A DNA stretch of 64,000 bases from an uncultured Alphaproteobacteria bacterium (GTDB taxonomy: Bacteria; Pseudomonadota; Alphaproteobacteria; Rhizobiales; Rhizobiaceae), in the NCBI GenBank assembly GCA_963838155.1, contig CAWIQE010000038.1, positions 43,498 through 107,497 of the forward strand, in the 5' to 3' direction. Positions 2,138 to 31,145 of this stretch are shown here, in pieces. The notes below the pieces were generated by a model. That model searched no databases, was not told where the DNA came from, and was given only the letters and a program-made list of their open reading frames with translations. The translations under genes were made by a program, and so were the position numbers. How positions within the stretch are numbered: the stretch's first letter is position 1; each line of letters starts with the position of its first letter.

Positions 2138-2935
2138 ATGCTTGACCAGTCCCACCCGCAGCCGATCGAAAGTCCGCTGCTCGAGGCGGCGACGCGCGGC
2201 GGCCCCGTCCGCCACGGTTTCTTCACCCGCGAGGGCGGCATCTCCGGAGACGTCTACAAGGGCCTGAACGTCGGCCTCGGCTCGGACGACGACCGCGGCA
2301 GCGTCCTGGAGAACCGCGCGCGGGTCTGCCGGTGGTTCGCCGCCGAAAGCGACCGCCTCGTCACGCCGCACCAGGTCCACTCCGCCGACGTTCACGTGGC
2401 CGACGGCCCGTTCGACGGCGACCGGCCGAAGGCCGATGCGGTGGTCACCGCCGTTCCCGGCCTCGTTCTCGGCGTCCTGACGGCCGATTGCGGGCCGATC
2501 CTGCTCGCCGATCCGCAGGCCGGCGTCGTCGCCGCCGCCCATGCCGGCTGGCGCGGCGCCTTCGACGGCATCGTCGAGAACACCGTCGCCGCCATGGTCG
2601 CGCTCGGCGCCTCCCGCACCCGCATCGTCGCCGCCCTCGGCCCCTCGATCAGCCGTCGGAACTACGAGGTCGGCCCCGAATTCGTCGAGCGGTTCACGAC
2701 GCGCGACGCCGCGCTCGAACGCTTCTTCTCCCCGTCGGACCGCCCCGGGCACGCCATGTTCGACCTGCCGGCCTTCACCCTGGCGCGGCTTTCCGAATCG
2801 GGAGTCGCCGCCGAAAATCTCGATCTCTGCACCTATCCCGACGAAGAACGCTTCTTTTCCTACCGCCGCACCAGCCATCGCGGCGAGCCGGACTACGGCC
2901 GGCAGATTTCGGCTATTTCGATCAAGGAGTTATAA
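2138..2935 (+). CDS. pgeF: peptidoglycan editing factor PgeF / YfiH laccase-domain protein
   Basis: ATG 2138 preceded by GAGGAGG. VRHGFFTREGGIS, HQVHSADV, LGVLTADCGPILL, AAAHAGWRG and CTY..E.FFSYRR motifs of the DUF152/YfiH family. Confidence 0.85.
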   Translation: MLDQSHPQPIESPLLEAATRGGPVRHGFFTREGGISGDVYKGLNVGLGSDDDRGSVLENRARVCRWFAAESDRLVTPHQVHSADVHVADGPFDGDRPKADAVVTAVPGLVLGVLTADCGPILLADPQAGVVAAAHAGWRGAFDGIVENTVAAMVALGASRTRIVAALGPSISRRNYEVGPEFVERFTTRDAALERFFSPSDRPGHAMFDLPAFTLARLSESGVAAENLDLCTYPDEERFFSYRRTSHRGEPDYGRQISAISIKEL

Positions 2936-2936
2936 G

Positions 2937-4088
2937 ATGGCCCTGCAATTCGCCCCCGACGAATACGAAGACCGACGAAAGCGCCTTCTCGAGGCGATGC
3001 AGGAGGAAAAGCTCGAAGCCGTGCTGCTCTTCGCGCAGGAAAGCATGTACTGGCTGACCGGGTTCGACAGCTTCGGCTTCTGCCACTTCCAGTGCCTCGT
3101 CGTGAAGGCCGACGGCGACATGGCGCTCCTCGCCCGCTCGGCCGACCTGCGGCAGGCGCGCCAGACCTCGACCATCGAGCGGATCGTCGTGTGGATCGAC
3201 CGCGCCAACGCCGACCCGACCGGCGACCTGAAGAACCTTCTCGACGACATGGATCTTCTCGGCTGCCGGATCGGCGTCGAATACGACACCCACGGGCTGA
3301 CCGGCGCCAATTGCCGGATGCTCGACAACCGCCTGCAATCCTTCGCCAATCCGGTCGACGCCTCCCACGTCGTCAGCCGGCTGCGGCTGATCAAGAGCCC
3401 GGAGGAGATCGCCCGCGTCCGCCGCGCCGCCGAGCTCGCCGACGCGGCCCTCGACGCGGCGCTCCCCCTGGTGCGCCCGGGCACCGACGAAGCCGCGATC
3501 CTCGCCGCCATGCAGGGCGCCGTCCTCGCCGGCGGAGGCGACTATCCCGCCAACCCCTTCGTCATCGGCTCCGGCCGGGAGGCGCTGCTGTGCCGCTACA
3601 AGTCGGGACGGCGCAAGCTCGAAGCCGAGGACCAGCTGACGCTCGAATGGGCCGGGGTCGACGCCCACTACCACGCGGCCATGATGCGCACCGTGCTCGT
3701 CGGCACCGTCGGCGAGCGCCACCGGGCCCTCTACGAGGCCGCGCGCGCCGCGATCGAGGAAATCGAGACGGTGATGCGGCCGGGCCGGACCTTCGGCGAC
3801 GTCTTCGCCGCCCATGCCCGCGTCATGGACCAGCGCGACATGACCCGCCACCGCCTGAACGCCTGCGGCTATTCGCTCGGCGCCCGCTTCGCGCCGTCCT
3901 GGATGGAGCACCAGATGTTCTACGCCGAGAACCCCCAGCCGATCGCGCCCTCCATGTCGCTGTTCGTCCACATGATCATCATGGACTCCGACAGCGGATG
4001 CGCGATGTGCCTCGGCCAGAGCTATCTCACCACCGAAGACGCCCCGGAACCGCTGTCGAGACACGGGCTCGACCTGATTTCATGCTGA
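2937..4088 (+). CDS. M24 family metallopeptidase (Xaa-Pro dipeptidase / creatinase-like)
   Basis: ATG 2937 lies 1 nt after the pgeF stop, in frame with track ORF 2541..4088. Creatinase/prolidase-type N-domain followed by an M24 pita-bread-like region (IKSPEEIARVRRAAELADAAL...). Confidence 0.8.
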   Translation: MALQFAPDEYEDRRKRLLEAMQEEKLEAVLLFAQESMYWLTGFDSFGFCHFQCLVVKADGDMALLARSADLRQARQTSTIERIVVWIDRANADPTGDLKNLLDDMDLLGCRIGVEYDTHGLTGANCRMLDNRLQSFANPVDASHVVSRLRLIKSPEEIARVRRAAELADAALDAALPLVRPGTDEAAILAAMQGAVLAGGGDYPANPFVIGSGREALLCRYKSGRRKLEAEDQLTLEWAGVDAHYHAAMMRTVLVGTVGERHRALYEAARAAIEEIETVMRPGRTFGDVFAAHARVMDQRDMTRHRLNACGYSLGARFAPSWMEHQMFYAENPQPIAPSMSLFVHMIIMDSDSGCAMCLGQSYLTTEDAPEPLSRHGLDLISC

Positions 4089-15530: not shown

Positions 15531-17183
<1,653 letters not shown>

Positions 17184-17186
<3 letters not shown>

Positions 17187-25814: not shown

Positions 25815-26480
25815 CTAGCCGGCGGGCGAAAGGGCGGGTTCGCCTGGCCGGGGCTCGGGGTCGCCGAGGGTCCTGTGGTCCGGGCGGTTCAGGAGCTTCG
25901 CCGTCGCCGAGAAGAACGCCCGGTCGAAATCGAGCTCCGGCGCGACCTTGGCATAGTCGTCGTCGACGAGCAGCGAGGCCGCGCCGTGGACGAAGGTCCA
26001 CAATTGCAGCGCGACGACCTGCGGATCGTCCTCGACATGGTTGGCCGCGCAATAGGCTTCGACTTCGCGGATGACGAAGCCGAAACATGCCTTGCCGCGG
26101 TCGGCGACCTCCGCGTTCGCGGCGAGCGCCGGCGTCTGTCCGAACATCAGCCGGAACAGCGGACGCTGCCTGGCGGCATGCTCGATATAGAACCGTTCGA
26201 TCGCCACGATCCGCTCGACGGAACCCGCCGGATGGCGATCCGCTGCCGAGGCCATCCCGTCCTTCAAGGCATCGAACGCCTGGGAAACGACGTTGCCGAG
26301 AATCTCGTCCTTGTTGCGGAAATGCCGATAGGGCGCGGCGGTGGAGACGCCGGCGATCCGGCACGCCTCGGCCAGCGAGAAGTTGCGTTCGCCGCGACTG
26401 AGGATCAGTTCCCGCGCCGCCTCGATCAGCGCCCGGCGCAGCCCTCCGTGGTGGTAGGCTCCTGTTGACTTTTCCGACAT
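25815..26480 (-). CDS. TetR/AcrR family transcriptional regulator
   Basis: ATG 26480 (MSEKSTGAYHHGGLRRALIEAARELILSRGERNFSLAEACRIAGVSTAAPYRHFRNKDEIL), a typical TetR HTH. Confidence 0.88.
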   Translation of the reverse strand: MSEKSTGAYHHGGLRRALIEAARELILSRGERNFSLAEACRIAGVSTAAPYRHFRNKDEILGNVVSQAFDALKDGMASAADRHPAGSVERIVAIERFYIEHAARQRPLFRLMFGQTPALAANAEVADRGKACFGFVIREVEAYCAANHVEDDPQVVALQLWTFVHGAASLLVDDDYAKVAPELDFDRAFFSATAKLLNRPDHRTLGDPEPRPGEPALSPAG

Positions 26481-26570
26481 CTCGTCTCGCCGATCAAACC
26501 GGTTGCAGCGACCCGCCAGGGCGCCGCAGGGAGATGCCCCCACGGGCTATACCTATGGTGTCCGGCGGCG

Positions 26571-26594
26571 TTCCACCATTCACCTTTGGTGGAG
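26571..26594. promoter_or_regulatory. inverted repeat upstream of the TetR gene (candidate operator)
   Basis: TTCCACCA-N8-TGGTGGAG (7 of 8 complementary), overlapping a second IR ATGGTG-N13-CACCAT (26555-26579). Confidence 0.25.
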
Positions 26595-26602
26595 GGCGCT
26601 CC

Positions 26603-26641
26603 TCAAAACGCGTGCAGGGCGCGACAAGCGTCGCGCCCTGC
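26603..26641 (-). terminator. rho-independent terminator downstream of the His-rich gene
   Basis: Minus strand: 12-bp stem GCAGGGCGCGAC/GTCGCGCCCTGC (26614-26641), loop of 4, then ACGCGTTTTG. It lies 35 nt after the frame-B stop at 26676. Confidence 0.65.
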
Positions 26642-27706
26642 TTCGAAACGGCACGTGGCCGTGGCGGGATTGCGGTCAGGAGCAGCCGCAACCGCCACCG
26701 CTGTTGCCGTGATTGTTCCCATGGCCGCCATGGTTGCCGTTGTTGCCATGGCCGCCGTGGTTGCCGTTGTTCCCATGGCCGCCGTGGTTGCCGTTGTTCC
26801 CATGGCCGCCGTGGTTGCCGTTGTTCCCATGGCCGCCGTGGTTGCCGTTGTTCCCATGGCCGCCGTGGTTGCCGTTGTTCCCATGGTGGCCATGGTTGCC
26901 GTTGTTGCCATGGTCGCCATGGTTGCCGTTGTTGCCATGGTGGCCGTTGTTGCCATGGTGGCCATTGTTCGCCATGGTGGCCATTGTTCCCATGGTGGCC
27001 ATTGTTGCCATGGTGGCCATTGTTGCCACGGTGGCCGCGATGCCCATTGTTGCCATGGTGGCCGCGATGCCCGCGATGGCCGATGTGACTTGCCGCGGTG
27101 ATGCCCGCGATGGCCGTCGTGACCGCCACGGTGATGCCCGCGATGGCCGTCGTGACCGCCACGGTGATGCCCGCGATGGCCGTCGTGATCTCCGCGGTGA
27201 TGCCCGCGATGGCCGTCGTGATGCCCGCGGTGGTGCCCGCGATGGCCGTCGTGATGCCCGCGGTGGTGCCCGCGATGGCCGTCGTGATGCCCGCGATGGT
27301 GCCCGCGATGGCCGTCGTGATGCCCGCGGTGATGCCCGCGATGGCCGTCGTGATGCCCGCGGTGATGCCCGCGATGGCCGTCGTGATGGTGATGGCCGTG
27401 ATGGCCGCCGCCGTTGGGCGGGGGCGGATCGCCGGGAGGCTGGCCGCCGCCTCCATTCGGCTTGCCGCCGGTCCTGCGATCGTCGCCACTGCCTTCGGCG
27501 ACCGGATCGGACTTGATCAAGGCCGTCGTGCGCGGCGGACACTTGTAGGGTCGATGGACGGACGCACCGACGCGTTCATGGCACCGCCGGGCGGCATCGG
27601 CTCCGATCTTGTCCGCTGCCGAAGCTGCCAGGCTTGTCCCCCAAATGCACAGTCCAGTTAGTATGACGGTCGACGCCGCCTTCGTAATCAACTTGCCGAA
27701 TGTCAT
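26603..27706 (-). CDS. secreted histidine-rich tandem-repeat protein (as-encoded ORF; probable true stop at 26676 after two +1 frame changes)
   Basis: ATG 27706 with GGAGTAGGAATAA upstream. Sec-type signal MTFGKLITKAASTVILTGLCIWGTSLAASA|AD. Nine copies of DGHRGHHRG(HH). The His/Asn/Gly-rich reading then continues in the other two frames to ...GNSGGGCGCS*. The frame-A tail (PPWQQW, MATTAT) reads through the terminator hairpin. Confidence 0.6.
   Translation of the reverse strand: MTFGKLITKAASTVILTGLCIWGTSLAASAADKIGADAARRCHERVGASVHRPYKCPPRTTALIKSDPVAEGSGDDRRTGGKPNGGGGQPPGDPPPPNGGGHHGHHHHDGHRGHHRGHHDGHRGHHRGHHDGHRGHHRGHHDGHRGHHRGHHDGHRGHHRGHHDGHRGHHRGDHDGHRGHHRGGHDGHRGHHRGGHDGHRGHHRGKSHRPSRASRPPWQQWASRPPWQQWPPWQQWPPWEQWPPWRTMATMATTATMATTATMATMATTATMATMGTTATTAAMGTTATTAAMGTTATTAAMGTTATTAAMGTTATTAAMATTATMAAMGTITATAVAVAAAPDRNPATATCRFEAGRDACRALHAF
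26719..27090. repeat. tandem array of 27-nt and 18-nt units (GNNGNHGGH / GHHGNN on the minus strand)
   Basis: Six 27-nt units CCATGGCCGCCGTGGTTGCCGTTGTTC (five identical), then variants. 18-nt units CCATGGTGGCCATTGTTG follow, one of which is 19 nt (26953-26971). Confidence 0.9.
27098..27394. repeat. tandem array of about nine 33-nt units (HHDGHRGHHRG on the minus strand)
   Basis: Unit GTGATGCCCGCGATGGCCGTCGTGACCGCCACG repeated head-to-tail with a few substitutions. Confidence 0.9.
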
Positions 27707-27737
27707 TTATTCCTACTCCACTAAAGAATTACAGCGC

Positions 27738-27776
27738 TTATTAGCATATTGTTAATTTCGCATCAACTAATATGAT
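27738..27776. promoter_or_regulatory. overlapping divergent sigma70-like promoters in an AT-rich spacer
   Basis: Minus strand: TTGATG (27766-27761), 17 nt, TAATAA (27743-27738), toward the His-rich gene. Plus strand: TTGTTA (27749-27754), 16 nt, TATGAT (27771-27776), toward the BTLCP gene. Confidence 0.4.
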
Positions 27777-27861
27777 CGGCTCCGGTGATTCGCCGGCGCT
27801 CCTGATCGGTTCACGAAATGGGAGAAGGCTGCCATACTGTCGGCACGGAGGGACGACCGCG

Positions 27862-28492
27862 ATGTCGAAGTCCGCCGCCCTGGCCGCCGCGCTCCTGGGA
27901 GCCGCCGGCTGTACACCCCTGACCACCGGAGCGATCGACGGCATCGCCACGGGATCGATCGGCCTGCCGACACCCATGGCGACCTATGGCGACGCGCTGG
28001 CGCCGCCGGCGTTCTACGACTTCTGCTTCCGCTTCCAGAACCTCTGCAGCACGAGCGGCAGCAAGGATCCCTCGACCTTGTCGCCGGACGCCGAACGGCA
28101 GCTGCAACGGGTCAACGCCTCGGTCAACGCGGCCGTGCGCGAGATCCCCGACGCGCTGAGCGAAGGCGGCGAGGACGTCTGGATGCCGGCGACCGCCGTC
28201 GGGGACTGCGAGGACATCGCGATCCTCAAGAAGCAGCGCCTGCTCGACCTGGGATGGCCCGCTTCAAGCCTCCTCCTGACCGTCGTCCGGGAGCCGGGAA
28301 ACGAACGAGGGCCACACGCTCCTGACGGTGCGCACGGACCGAGGCGACCTCGCCCTCGACAATCTGACAGACGACATCAGGCAGTGGTGGTACACCCCCT
28401 ACCGCTTCTATGCCCGCCAGGCCGTCGGCGGGACGGGAGACTGGGAGTTCATCGCCGAGGACACGACCGGCTGGGAGGCGCGGCTCTATTAA
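27862..28492 (+). pseudogene. transglutaminase-like cysteine peptidase (BTLCP / LapG-like, COG3672), frameshifted near 28296
   Basis: ATG 27862 after GGAGGG. Lipoprotein signal MSKSAALAAALLGAAGC and catalytic Cys context GDCEDIAILKKQRLL in frame 1. The His/Asp half (EGHTLLTVRTDRGDLALDNLTDDIRQWWYTPYRFYARQ...ARLY*) is in the +1 frame. Confidence 0.8.
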
Positions 28493-28650
28493 AGCAATTC
28501 CAGGAAAAGTGGGAACCGGTTTTCCGTCCGGAATTGCGCCAAGCAAAAACTCAATTCCAGGAAAAGTGGGAACCGGTTCCTAATCTGGACTCGCGCGACG
28601 CAAGGACTTAATTCCGCGACACGGGCTTTCCGTCCGGCACCGCGCAAGGG
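28493..28650. repeat. intergenic hairpin repeat, locus R2 (one full plus two degenerate units in tandem)
   Basis: CAATTCCAGGAAAAGTGGGAACCGGTTTTCCGTCCGGAATTG (28495-28536), a second CAATTCCAGGAAAAGTGGGAACCGGTT at 28552-28578, and a third degenerate unit GGGCTTTCCGTCCGGCACCGCGC at 28623-28645. Confidence 0.75.
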
Positions 28651-28672
28651 AAAAGTCCCCGGGATACCGTCG

Positions 28673-30049
28673 TCAGAGGACCGGTGACCCGAGCCGGAAG
28701 ATGCCTTCGACGAAGCGTCGGAAGAGGCCGCCCGAGACGGCGTATTCCATGCAGTCCGCCTGCTGCCGCTCGAACCATGCCTGGACCTCTTCGAGCGACT
28801 GCGCGTCGTAGAGGAACAGCGCCGTCTCGAAATTGAGCAGCATGCTGCGCACGTCGAAATTGGCGGAGCCGACATAGGCGACATCGTCGACGATGCCGGC
28901 CTTGGCGTGGAGCATGCCATCCGTGTACTGCAGGATCCGGCAGCCGGCGCCCGCCAGCTCGCGCACATAGGCGCCGCGCGCGAAATCGGCGATCCGGTGG
29001 TTCGAGCGCCGCGGAACCACGATGCGCACGTCCAGCCCGCGCCGCGCCGCCGTCGACAGCGCCTGGCCGAGGAATTCCGTCGGCAGGAAATAGGGCGTGG
29101 CGATCCAGACGCGCCGGCGCGCGGCGTGGATGGCATAGACGAGGCCGTCGTGCAGCGCGTCGTCCTCGCGGTCCGGCCCCGAGGCGACCAGCTGGGCGAC
29201 GGCGGTGCCGGCCCCGGCGGCAAAGGCGCCGGCCGGCGTTTCCGCGGACCCGCCGCCGACCGCGGCCCAGTCGGACGCGTGGACGTCGCAGAACGGCCGC
29301 ACCGCCGGGCCCTCGATCCGGTAGGACAGGTCGCTCCAGCGGCCGGCACGGGGCGCCGGGCCCATATAGTCCTCGCCGACGTTCATGCCCCCCGCGAACA
29401 CCCGCGCCCGGTCGGCGATGACCATCTTTCGGTGGTTGCGCAGGTTCAGGTGTCCCTTCGCCGGCAGGTGGACGATCGGCGAGAAATAGCGGATTTCCCC
29501 GCCCGCCCGGCGCAGGCGGCTGAGCGCCTCCCCCGGCCGCTTCAGGTCCCCGAGACGGTCGATGATGAGGCGCACCCGCACGCCGCTCCGCGCCGCCTGC
29601 TCGAGCGCGTCGACGAAGGTCCGGCCGGCCGCGTCGTCGGCGATGAGGTAGAACGTGATGTCGAGGCGCTGCCGGGCGCTCGCGACGACCTCCATCATCG
29701 CGGCGAACGCATCCGCCCCGTCGCTCAGGAGCACCAGCGCGTTCCCGCCGGTGGCCGCCGGAAGGCCGAAGCGCGTGAACACGCGCTCCAGCTCGCTCGA
29801 CCGGTGGCCGGGAACGTCCTTGCCGTGGGGGGAAAAGGCGATCGCCGCGAAGCCGGAGCCGGTCTTTCGCACGCCGAGCATGACGAGCAGCGGCACCGCG
29901 ACATAGGGCAGCGCGAGAATGAAGAGCAGCCAGGCCGCCGCCGACTGCGGGGTGCGGCGCTGCTGCAGCACGAAGACGGCGGCCAGGAGCGTCAATGCGA
30001 CGCCCAGGACGACCGTCAGGTGATCGGCGAGCCAGGACAATTCGACCAT
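28673..30049 (-). CDS. cls: cardiolipin synthase (phospholipase D family, two HKD motifs)
   Basis: ATG 30049 (MVELSWLADHLTVVLGVALTLL...). Two N-terminal TMs. HRKMVIAD and HAKAGIVDDVAYVGSANFD HKD motifs. Confidence 0.88.
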   Translation of the reverse strand: MVELSWLADHLTVVLGVALTLLAAVFVLQQRRTPQSAAAWLLFILALPYVAVPLLVMLGVRKTGSGFAAIAFSPHGKDVPGHRSSELERVFTRFGLPAATGGNALVLLSDGADAFAAMMEVVASARQRLDITFYLIADDAAGRTFVDALEQAARSGVRVRLIIDRLGDLKRPGEALSRLRRAGGEIRYFSPIVHLPAKGHLNLRNHRKMVIADRARVFAGGMNVGEDYMGPAPRAGRWSDLSYRIEGPAVRPFCDVHASDWAAVGGGSAETPAGAFAAGAGTAVAQLVASGPDREDDALHDGLVYAIHAARRRVWIATPYFLPTEFLGQALSTAARRGLDVRIVVPRRSNHRIADFARGAYVRELAGAGCRILQYTDGMLHAKAGIVDDVAYVGSANFDVRSMLLNFETALFLYDAQSLEEVQAWFERQQADCMEYAVSGGLFRRFVEGIFRLGSPVL

Positions 30050-30940: not shown

Positions 30941-31145
30941 GAGACGGTCTCGCTTTCGAGAAGCCATGGTTCCGGAAGATCCGCCGCGGTGATGCGACGA
31001 ACCATGACGCGACATGCGACGCGTTCGCCCGCCCGTGAAACGGCCCTCGTCCTCTCGTATCGGATACCCTCTGTGACGGCGGGTGCGCAAGTGGCAAGGG
31101 GGCCGCAAGGCCCGCACGTCCCCGGCCCGCTCGCCGGTCCGCGCC

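Follow-up and report, generated by a model that had tools for sequence, protein, structure and literature searches.

A candidate family of glycine-rich, Sec-exported repeat proteins encoded head-to-head with BTLCP peptidases in Hyphomicrobiales

On the minus strand of the 64,000-nt stretch analysed here (the window, to whose positions coordinates refer unless a locus is named), an open reading frame (ORF) at 26603-27706 opens with a signal peptide and continues into tandem repeats of very high histidine content, and it stands divergent to a gene for a peptidase of the BTLCP (Peptidase_C93) family. The locus raises the question of whether such a low-complexity stretch is a gene at all and, if it is, whether its product is a periplasmic metal-buffering protein, as the initial annotation proposed, or something else. 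Sequence comparison indicates that it belongs to an undescribed Hyphomicrobiales family of Sec-exported, Gly-rich repeat proteins that are paired with BTLCPs and occur in soil and root-nodule bacteria. This systematically mis-annotated family, rather than the metal hypothesis, appears to be the main discovery, and its mechanism is put forward as a proposal. Exported proteins rich in His, and peptidases that have an exported repeat protein as their dedicated partner, are each already known as kinds.

The clearest evidence for a genuine gene comes from a second copy. Searches for proteins identical to the flanking TetR and ABC permease led to a 209-kb ENA metagenome contig (L081/L083), ~99.9% identical to the window, in which the His-rich gene is one uninterrupted 397-aa frame with the same ATG and the same GGGCGCS* end, 12 copies of an 11-aa unit, and a longer array of G-x-x triplets than that of the window. 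A copy from a third strain (L084) has ~22 units, three N-terminal substitutions, the same end and one frameshift elsewhere, and across the three copies the number varies in whole units (9 in the window, 12 in L083 and ~22 in L084). The single-frame homologue that the initial annotation suggested seeking therefore exists, and its central claim of a genuine gene for an exported, extremely His-rich repeat protein is borne out. The pattern of differences among repeat units leads to the same place. When 21 consecutive units of 33 nt are compared, synonymous changes make up 64% of the codon differences in the His frame, compared with 4-30% in the other five frames; over 19 consecutive 27-nt units, the corresponding values are 78% and 1-34%. 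The gene is coding and selected in the His frame, as a synonymous excess found in that frame only excludes the alternative frames as well as non-coding satellite DNA, an outcome that had initially been named as one that would overturn the gene.

A non-coding minisatellite, in which the ORFs are by-products of a GC-rich repeat open in six frames, would explain several features of the locus. The repeat region is open in all six frames (26465-27706, with ORFs of 171-367 aa), whole-protein searches yield no protein homologue, and gene callers disagree, often choosing the antisense strand, as in L081/L083 (L081 4657-5760), L084 (1760-3087), L088 (471-1196) and L092 (3854-4387). However, the marked synonymous excess is confined to one frame, a proper ribosome-binding site, ATG and signal peptide are present, the N-terminal module is conserved across genera, the ORFs are intact in L083, Mesorhizobium and S. 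meliloti, and the stop codon is followed by a hairpin. At the level of sequence, the minisatellite reading is refuted by the frame test and by the conservation of the N-terminal module across genera, and it retains almost no probability.

The six-frame-open repeats and the antisense gene calls imply that the true products are missing from protein databases, which is the likely reason that searches failed. Against 5.8 billion proteins, the whole repaired protein (two bases removed, vide infra) returned collagen-like noise only, the repeat words having swamped candidate selection; a protein search with the N-terminal domain gave low-complexity noise and no true homologue; and an exhaustive phmmer search with residues 1-205 against 1.84 billion representatives found only low-complexity look-alikes. 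Scans of JGI metagenomes with peptides from the N-terminal module, and with a fully degenerate DNA pattern for HHDGHRGHHRG, gave no match, as did tblastn of the two-Cys module against plasmids. A megablast of the locus against plasmids matched only a short intergenic repeat, and a contig search with the neighbouring cardiolipin synthase-like (Cls) gene had as its best matches non-syntenic sequences, 62-66% identical and lacking His-rich ORFs.

The divergent neighbour (27862-28492, plus strand) encodes a predicted BTLCP/Peptidase_C93 lipoprotein, with Pfam matches that are split across two frames in the window (PF06035, 87.8 bits over profile positions 3-109 and 39.6 bits over 116-160, the cut-off being 27). 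Intact copies of the gene are present in L083 and L084, and in L083 and the repaired window gene the lipobox LLGAAG|C17 and a triad of C116 (GDC116EDIA), H151 (GH151TLL) and D166 (LD166N) can be recognised. In the window, the start codons of the His-rich gene and the peptidase gene are 155 bp apart. In a related species (L085-L087, 77-85% nucleotide identity), alignment with the window extends through the TetR orthologue as far as 26458 and resumes at 28675 with the Cls orthologue, and only ~150 bp separates the two genes there; the His-rich gene and the BTLCP gene are both absent. This joint absence indicates that the pair behaves as a 2.2-kb indel module, which in the window occupies 26459-28674, between the TetR and phospholipase D (PLD)/cardiolipin-synthase-like genes, and comprises the two genes and a small repeat element. 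In L088, the module is found in another context, adjoining hut genes.

A comparison of loci gathered as the neighbourhoods of relatives, identified in a homology search with the intact BTLCP, extends the pairing beyond this lineage. A partner gene stands head-to-head with the peptidase gene in 10 of the 12 loci with a BTLCP of at least 46% identity (the window, L083, L084, L088/L089, L090, L092, L093, L094, L095 from Mesorhizobium and L096 from S. meliloti), and is absent from all four loci with a BTLCP of 40% identity or less. The peptidase, initially regarded as mere context, is thus a conserved partner. Gene order in these loci shows pairing with the peptidase across genera and, as judged from the indel above, joint movement as a two-gene module. 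The partners share a signal peptide, a Cys...CPPxTTxI module with invariant C-P-P, T, I and G, and a Gly-rich repeat tail. A profile made from their alignment (A1) detects the untrained members L090 (E=1e-12), L092 (2e-5) and L096 (6e-3), and gives E=5e-35 for the window protein, which is a training member. Profile and sequence searches of Pfam, NCBIfam and the PDB gave no entry that covers the partner, which, with the outcome of the phmmer search, agrees with the early impression that the architecture lies outside described families.

It is in the tails that the partners diverge. In L093 (BTLCP 70% identical) the tail runs GHRAKHQGHRGKHGHHA... until the contig ends, and in L094 (68%) it runs HHHEGRHHHEGRHHHHEG..., also to a contig end; L090 (65%) has a short tail, and L088/L089 (64%) has ten TGGGG units followed by ~45 HGGGG/HGGSG units. 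At lower identity, L092 (52%) has the tail GGGGAGGGGGGSDD, S. meliloti Ak57 (L096, 52%; annotated as the hypothetical protein UIJ93845.1) has 16 copies of GGGGGGDN, and Mesorhizobium sp. LNHC232B00 (L095, 46%) has an intact protein of 164 aa with GGKGGDD heptads. The tails are 35-66% Gly, and hydrophobic residues account for 0-1% in five of six members and 11% in L092, where they are Ala. Those of L093, L094 and L088 are also His-rich, whereas the tails of Mesorhizobium, S. meliloti and L092 are rich in Gly and Asp (with Lys, Asn or Ser) and contain 0-3 His. Since His-richness is not family-wide, dedicated metal buffering, the function initially suggested, cannot be the core function of the family.

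A further member of the partner family is found on a Phyllobacterium sp. A18/5-2 chromid (L102, ~2440-3200). It has a four-Cys module and a G/H/N/D tail ending GGHKGGGHHGDNHGKGNHNGDRHGNNGHGND, which resembles the His/Asn/Gly array of the window; the gene is unannotated in the record table.

The start of the window gene is as initially described. A ribosome-binding site read directly from the sequence (GGAGTAGGA, 27711-27719, minus strand) lies 4 nt 5' of the ATG at 27706, in a 155-bp divergent intergenic region with a GC content of 0.50, compared with ~0.68 for the window. The first 30 residues (27617-27706) form a predicted Sec signal peptide ending in LAASA|AD; the N-terminus, MTFGKLITKAASTVILTGLCIWGTSLAASA|AD, has a basic n-region, a hydrophobic core and an A-x-A motif, signal peptide calls here being made by n/h/c and A-x-A rules and not by prediction software. 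The signal peptide is retained across all family members in the alignment. A lipoprotein reading of the LTGLC within it was rejected because position -1 is Leu. The conserved N-terminal module follows (aa 31-76, 27479-27616), ~45 aa long with two Cys in the window protein, and reads RC-x12-KCPPRTTALIK...EGSG; the positions invariant in alignment A1 are C56, P57, P58, T61, I64 and G72, in a numbering that is the window protein's own count plus one (K54, C55, P56 and P57 in its own count).

The remainder of the first reading frame also matches the initial description, with a Gly/Pro-rich linker and HHGHH lead-in (aa 77-106, 27389-27478) and nine 33-nt units at 27092-27388 that encode HHDGHRGHHRG in frame 0 (six canonical units, one DHDG... 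and two GHDG...). Tandem Repeats Finder reports this array with a period of 33, 9.8 copies, 94% matches and a score of 511, in line with the unit table. The shorter His/Asn/Gly repeats and the GGGCGCS end had been correctly noticed, but they lie in frames 1 and 2 and not in the frame of the signal peptide. Frame 0 provides the signal peptide and the 11-aa repeats (residues 1-205); frame 1 (27089-26971) carries HIGHRGHRGHHGNN...GHHG, within the segment SHIGHRGHRGHHGNNGHRGHRGNNGHHGNNGHHGNNGHHG that starts the G-x-x register; and frame 2 (26969-26676) carries NNGHHGNN..., an array of GNNGNHGGH units (27-nt period, 11 copies, 89% matches, score 410), the C-terminal GGGCGCS and the native stop at 26678-26676. 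A terminator-like hairpin, GCAGGGCGCGAC-GCUU-GUCGCGCCCUGC followed by UUUU (26605-26641), is found 3' of that stop. Its 12-bp stem-loop (26641-26614) folds at -49.5 kcal/mol with z = -5.3; a strict terminator scan did not call it, and it is the folding that reveals it.

The three frames are separated by two +1 insertions. The first is one extra base in GGCAAGTCAC (27090..27091), recognised by comparison with neighbouring units and L083, and is accompanied by three clustered mismatches in the same comparison. The second is an extra G at 26970, giving GGCGAACAAT where GGCAACAAT is expected (GGCGAAC), the intact reading being that of L083. As a result, the 27706-26603 ORF (367 aa), initially taken to encode the whole protein, decodes the second array out of frame; it reads ...GHHRGKSHRPSRASRPPWQQW...TATMATTATMA...ALHAF*, includes PPWQQW..., overruns the native stop and the hairpin, and owes its end coordinate to the wrong frame. 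A frame problem had been suspected, though not stated, in the initial request for an intact single-frame homologue. With the two bases removed, the window protein has 342 aa, of which His makes up 24%, rising to 33.5% from residue 101 onward, in line with the one-third or more initially estimated for the repeats. It contains 41 consecutive G-x-x triplets, compared with 46 uninterrupted triplets in L083.

The peptidase gene of the window has an insertion of its own, an extra G at 28303, after residue 147 and between the catalytic Cys and His. Deletion of this base gives 209/210 identity to the intact L083 peptidase, and no other 1-bp indel is found in the 16.2 kb over which the non-repeat sequence aligns with L083. 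The three window insertions may be either long-read consensus errors or the joint decay of the module. In the latter case they are genuine mutations, and the His-rich gene and the peptidase gene are co-decaying pseudogenes. Outside the arrays, only 19 substitutions and the one 1-bp indel separate the window from L083 in those 16.2 kb, and the indel falls within the 630-bp BTLCP gene, for which the chance is ~4% if placement is random; it takes His151 and Asp166 out of frame, and none of the three insertions is in a homopolymer. However, the related contigs are Flye-style long-read metagenome assemblies, one of which (L087) has many fragmented genes, and three of four long-read copies (the window, L084 and L088) have an array frameshift in a different place in each, which resembles the errors made in calling a consensus across tandem repeats. 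The context C[G]AAC is also common to two of the three insertions of the window, and the first array frameshift has its cluster of three mismatches. Joint decay is accordingly treated as possible but the less probable outcome, a judgement that covers all three insertions together; the evidence for the BTLCP insertion looks more evenly balanced than that for the two array shifts. Phase variation by slippage was rejected as unlikely because the unit lengths are multiples of three and the insertions are not in homopolymers.

Composition is what first suggested a metal-related function, and in this lineage it is extreme. The mature L083 protein (367 residues, 38.6 kDa) contains 105 His (~29%), 115 Gly, 50 Asn, 34 Arg and 32 HH pairs, with an isoelectric point of 11.5 and a computed net charge of ~+27 at pH 7 and ~+98 at pH 5.5; such an exported protein would be an unusually dense natural chelator and a pH-switchable polycation. 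Metal and proton binding are plausible properties of this tail, chelation of borderline metals and buffering of protons being all but certain in vitro, and may also have a physiological role. The product could, on its own, buffer or store metal in the periplasm, as a large analogue of SmbP or Hpn acting independently of the peptidase. Consistent with that idea are the His content and HH pairs, the export signal, the Cys pairs at both ends, the His-rich tails of L093, L094 and L088, and a znuABC zinc transporter 0.9 kb downstream of the BTLCP gene in L090 (6454-9043). However, the partners of Mesorhizobium, S. meliloti and L092 are essentially devoid of His and yet retain both the N-terminal module and their place beside the peptidase gene; the immediate neighbours in the window include no metal transporter, sensor or metal-type regulator, as was initially observed for transporters and sensors; and neither SmbP and Hpn nor any other metal binder of solved structure is related to the protein in sequence. 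Because relatives replace His with Asp, Asn or Lys, a stand-alone metal buffer is ranked below a peptidase target and is considered unlikely.

The best explanation, to which about an even probability is given, is that these proteins are a dedicated partner or target family of BTLCPs, with a His-rich polyelectrolyte tail in this lineage. The native product would consist of the signal peptide, the ~45-aa CPPxTTxI module, the Gly/Pro linker, 9-22 copies of HHDGHRGHHRG, 40-46 G-x-x triplets and a C-terminal CGC. After export, the cognate envelope peptidase may recognise the N-terminal module, leading to cleavage, release or cross-linking; by analogy with LapG and LapA, it is on this module that the peptidase probably acts. 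The tail would then be an intrinsically disordered polyelectrolyte, free of hydrophobic residues and bearing lineage-specific ligand side chains. In this lineage, with ~30% imidazole, it could chelate Ni, Zn, Cu or Co at high capacity and take up cations and protons in the envelope like a sponge.

Several observations weigh against this proposal. The loci are few (~16) and were selected by BTLCP similarity; two of them (L091 and L097, BTLCP 49-53% identical) lack a partner; and the Phyllobacterium member of the partner family has no BTLCP within 2.5 kb. The His-rich gene of the window is untranslatable as a single product. Head-to-head conservation could reflect co-regulation only, the link between peptidase and partner being known from the genes alone, and the canonical LapG-type TAAG site is absent from the partner. 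Metal binding, for its part, is deduced only from composition, and in the window no gene for metal homeostasis adjoins the pair.

A more specific version of the peptidase-target proposal is quite unlikely to hold in all its parts. It supposes that CPPxTT-module proteins are dedicated substrates of a non-LapG BTLCP subfamily, and that the N-terminal module is cleaved or transamidated so that the tail is released or anchored as a cation- and pH-responsive periplasmic or surface layer. In this lineage, the ~30% His, the array with Gly at every third residue and a terminal Cys knot might additionally give metal-bridged oligomers of collagen-like or polyglycine-II type.

Assembly is another conceivable role, with the G-x-x half forming a collagen-like or polyglycine-II structure in which metal-bridged His and a CGC knot stabilise trimers within an envelope fibre or layer. 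The 41 (window) to 46 (L083) uninterrupted triplets would suit such an arrangement, as would the two Cys that end the array in an oxidising compartment, and collagen chains in the PDB are matched with E down to 3e-55. However, those alignments match at Gly positions only and have high bias scores, Pfam Collagen gives no match at E<=1, and the array is without Pro; Asn, His and Gly are poor triple-helix formers. An AlphaFold2 monomer model of the G-x-x tail has a pLDDT of 45 and no secondary structure, and the tail is predicted to be disordered; other family tails are not in the G-x-x register. A collagen-like assembly is therefore regarded as improbable. The resemblance to bacterial collagen-like proteins (Scl1/2 and BclA, PF01391) lies in export and in a long uninterrupted array with Gly at every third residue, whereas the window array differs in having no Pro, X and Y positions occupied by His, Asn and Gly, no recognised trimerisation domain and predicted disorder.

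Among characterised systems, the closest parallel to the proposed peptidase-target pair is that of LapG with LapA or CdrA. There, too, the gene for a Peptidase_C93 enzyme with a Cys-His-Asp triad is coupled to that of a highly repetitive protein that is exported and whose N-terminal module matters to the protease; in the Lap system the BTLCP protease cleaves the adhesin in the periplasm, whereas in the present pair cleavage is a proposal. The neighbour had initially been called LapG-like; it is a Peptidase_C93 protein, but its score against the LapG equivalog NF045674 (30.3 bits, cut-off 320) shows that it is not a LapG orthologue, and the LapG structures 4U65 and 4FGO match it weakly (E ~2e-4). 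A LapD-type GGDEF-EAL receptor is not found adjacent to the pair, the rest of the 64-kb window not having been scanned for LapD. The Lap substrate is a giant RTX adhesin secreted by a type I secretion system, with an N-terminal retention module and a TAAG-type di-alanine site; the partner, in contrast, has a Sec signal, is ~37 kDa (342-397 aa), has no RTX or other Pfam domain and lacks TAAG, with only loose D/T-A-A/R-x motifs readable before the first Cys.

Other BTLCPs of alphaproteobacteria, such as HvyA, are located in the periplasm, and their targets are unknown (PMC4241560). HvyA and its Sinorhizobium homologues SMc00998/NGR_c12490 resemble the window peptidase in being periplasmic and in having CtrA sites in their promoters, similar TTAA-N7-TTAA sites being present in the window; HvyA differs in being embedded in a capsule locus and in having no Gly-rich partner. 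The possibility that the partner-linked BTLCP of S. meliloti (L096) is the HvyA-like SMc00998 was rejected by a test with the published cloning primers.

As for His-rich proteins, SmbP of Nitrosomonas europaea and Hpn/Hpn-2 of Helicobacter have very high His contents in short repeats, and SmbP is also periplasmic. SmbP is helical. It is, however, a ~10-kDa protein, Hpn is cytoplasmic and has no signal peptide, and a Cys/CPPxTT module, a G-x-x array and a peptidase partner are lacking in both; a PDB search with the His-rich protein gave no match other than collagens at E<=1 and no relation to SmbP or Hpn. Among eukaryotic Gly/His-rich proteins of metal-hardened or antimicrobial type, the Nereis jaw protein Nvjp-1 and the shepherins are extracellular low-complexity proteins with approximately one-third each of Gly and His, a likeness that is compositional only, the organisms and sequences being unrelated.

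The divergent intergenic region (27707-27861) contains two CtrA-box-like TTAA-N7-TTAA sites with one mismatch each (27741-27755 and 27752-27766), together with a sigma-70-like site on the plus strand (27749-27776). The promoters of hvyA and SMc00998 are controlled by CtrA and MucR and contain CtrA sites (PMC4241560). Sites with at most one mismatch were found in seven of eight partner/BTLCP intergenic regions (the window, L088, L092, L093, L094, where the site is perfect, L095 and L096), with 13 sites found compared with ~1 expected from shuffles. Because AT-rich patches inflate such counts, they are only suggestive of CtrA-type control of the pair.

The interest of the family lies partly in the peptidases. 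BTLCPs are widespread in alphaproteobacteria, and outside the Lap system it is not known what they act on physiologically (PMC4241560). The conserved partner, encoded head-to-head and marked by a short invariant module, offers a concrete target candidate that is genetically testable in the tractable S. meliloti and Mesorhizobium. It also exposes a blind spot in annotation, as a family that is largely absent from protein databases calls for DNA-level, frame-aware searches. The His-rich member is also of interest to the study of metal homeostasis among soil bacteria, and it might serve as a biotechnological scaffold.

Several minor features of the locus and its relatives may be recorded. At the right edge of the module is a 57-nt tandem pair of a small intergenic repeat (28495-28608); a third, partial copy of this palindrome-containing repeat extends the region to 28654, and plasmids of Agrobacterium vitis and Phyllobacterium contain sequences 96-100% identical to its core. 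In L084, a fragment of an IS1595-family transposase (275-652) is found directly beyond the BTLCP gene at the contig end, consistent with a rearrangement-prone spot. The histidine-utilisation cluster that adjoins the module in L088 (2390-7395) includes FGase, a HutH-like lyase and two amidohydrolases, one of them HutF. Residues 17-25 of the window BTLCP (CTPLTTGAI, 27910-27936) resemble partner residues 56-64 (CPPxTTxxI, 27515-27541), a likeness confined to the nearest BTLCP clade (P0051 and P0053-55) and left as a curiosity. On a Shinella plasmid (L099) and a Jiella plasmid (L100), BTLCPs of ~40% identity without a partner are found in copper, cation and envelope-folding islands that contain copC, copD, pseudoazurin, DsbA, a PPIase, an L,D-transpeptidase and a CDF transporter.

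The genes surrounding the module in the window encode TetR, an ABC sugar transporter, the PLD/Cls-like protein, a Peptidase_C26 protein and RibBA. A 5-bp deletion relative to L083 (TCCGA) is found at 31138, upstream of the Peptidase_C26/GATase gene. Finally, the GroEL encoded at 15543-17186 is a singleton cluster at 90% identity among ~15 billion proteins, which places the organism in a Hyphomicrobiales lineage that has hardly been sampled and is represented by only a few metagenome assemblies (ENA ERZ250394xx/ERZ25039549).

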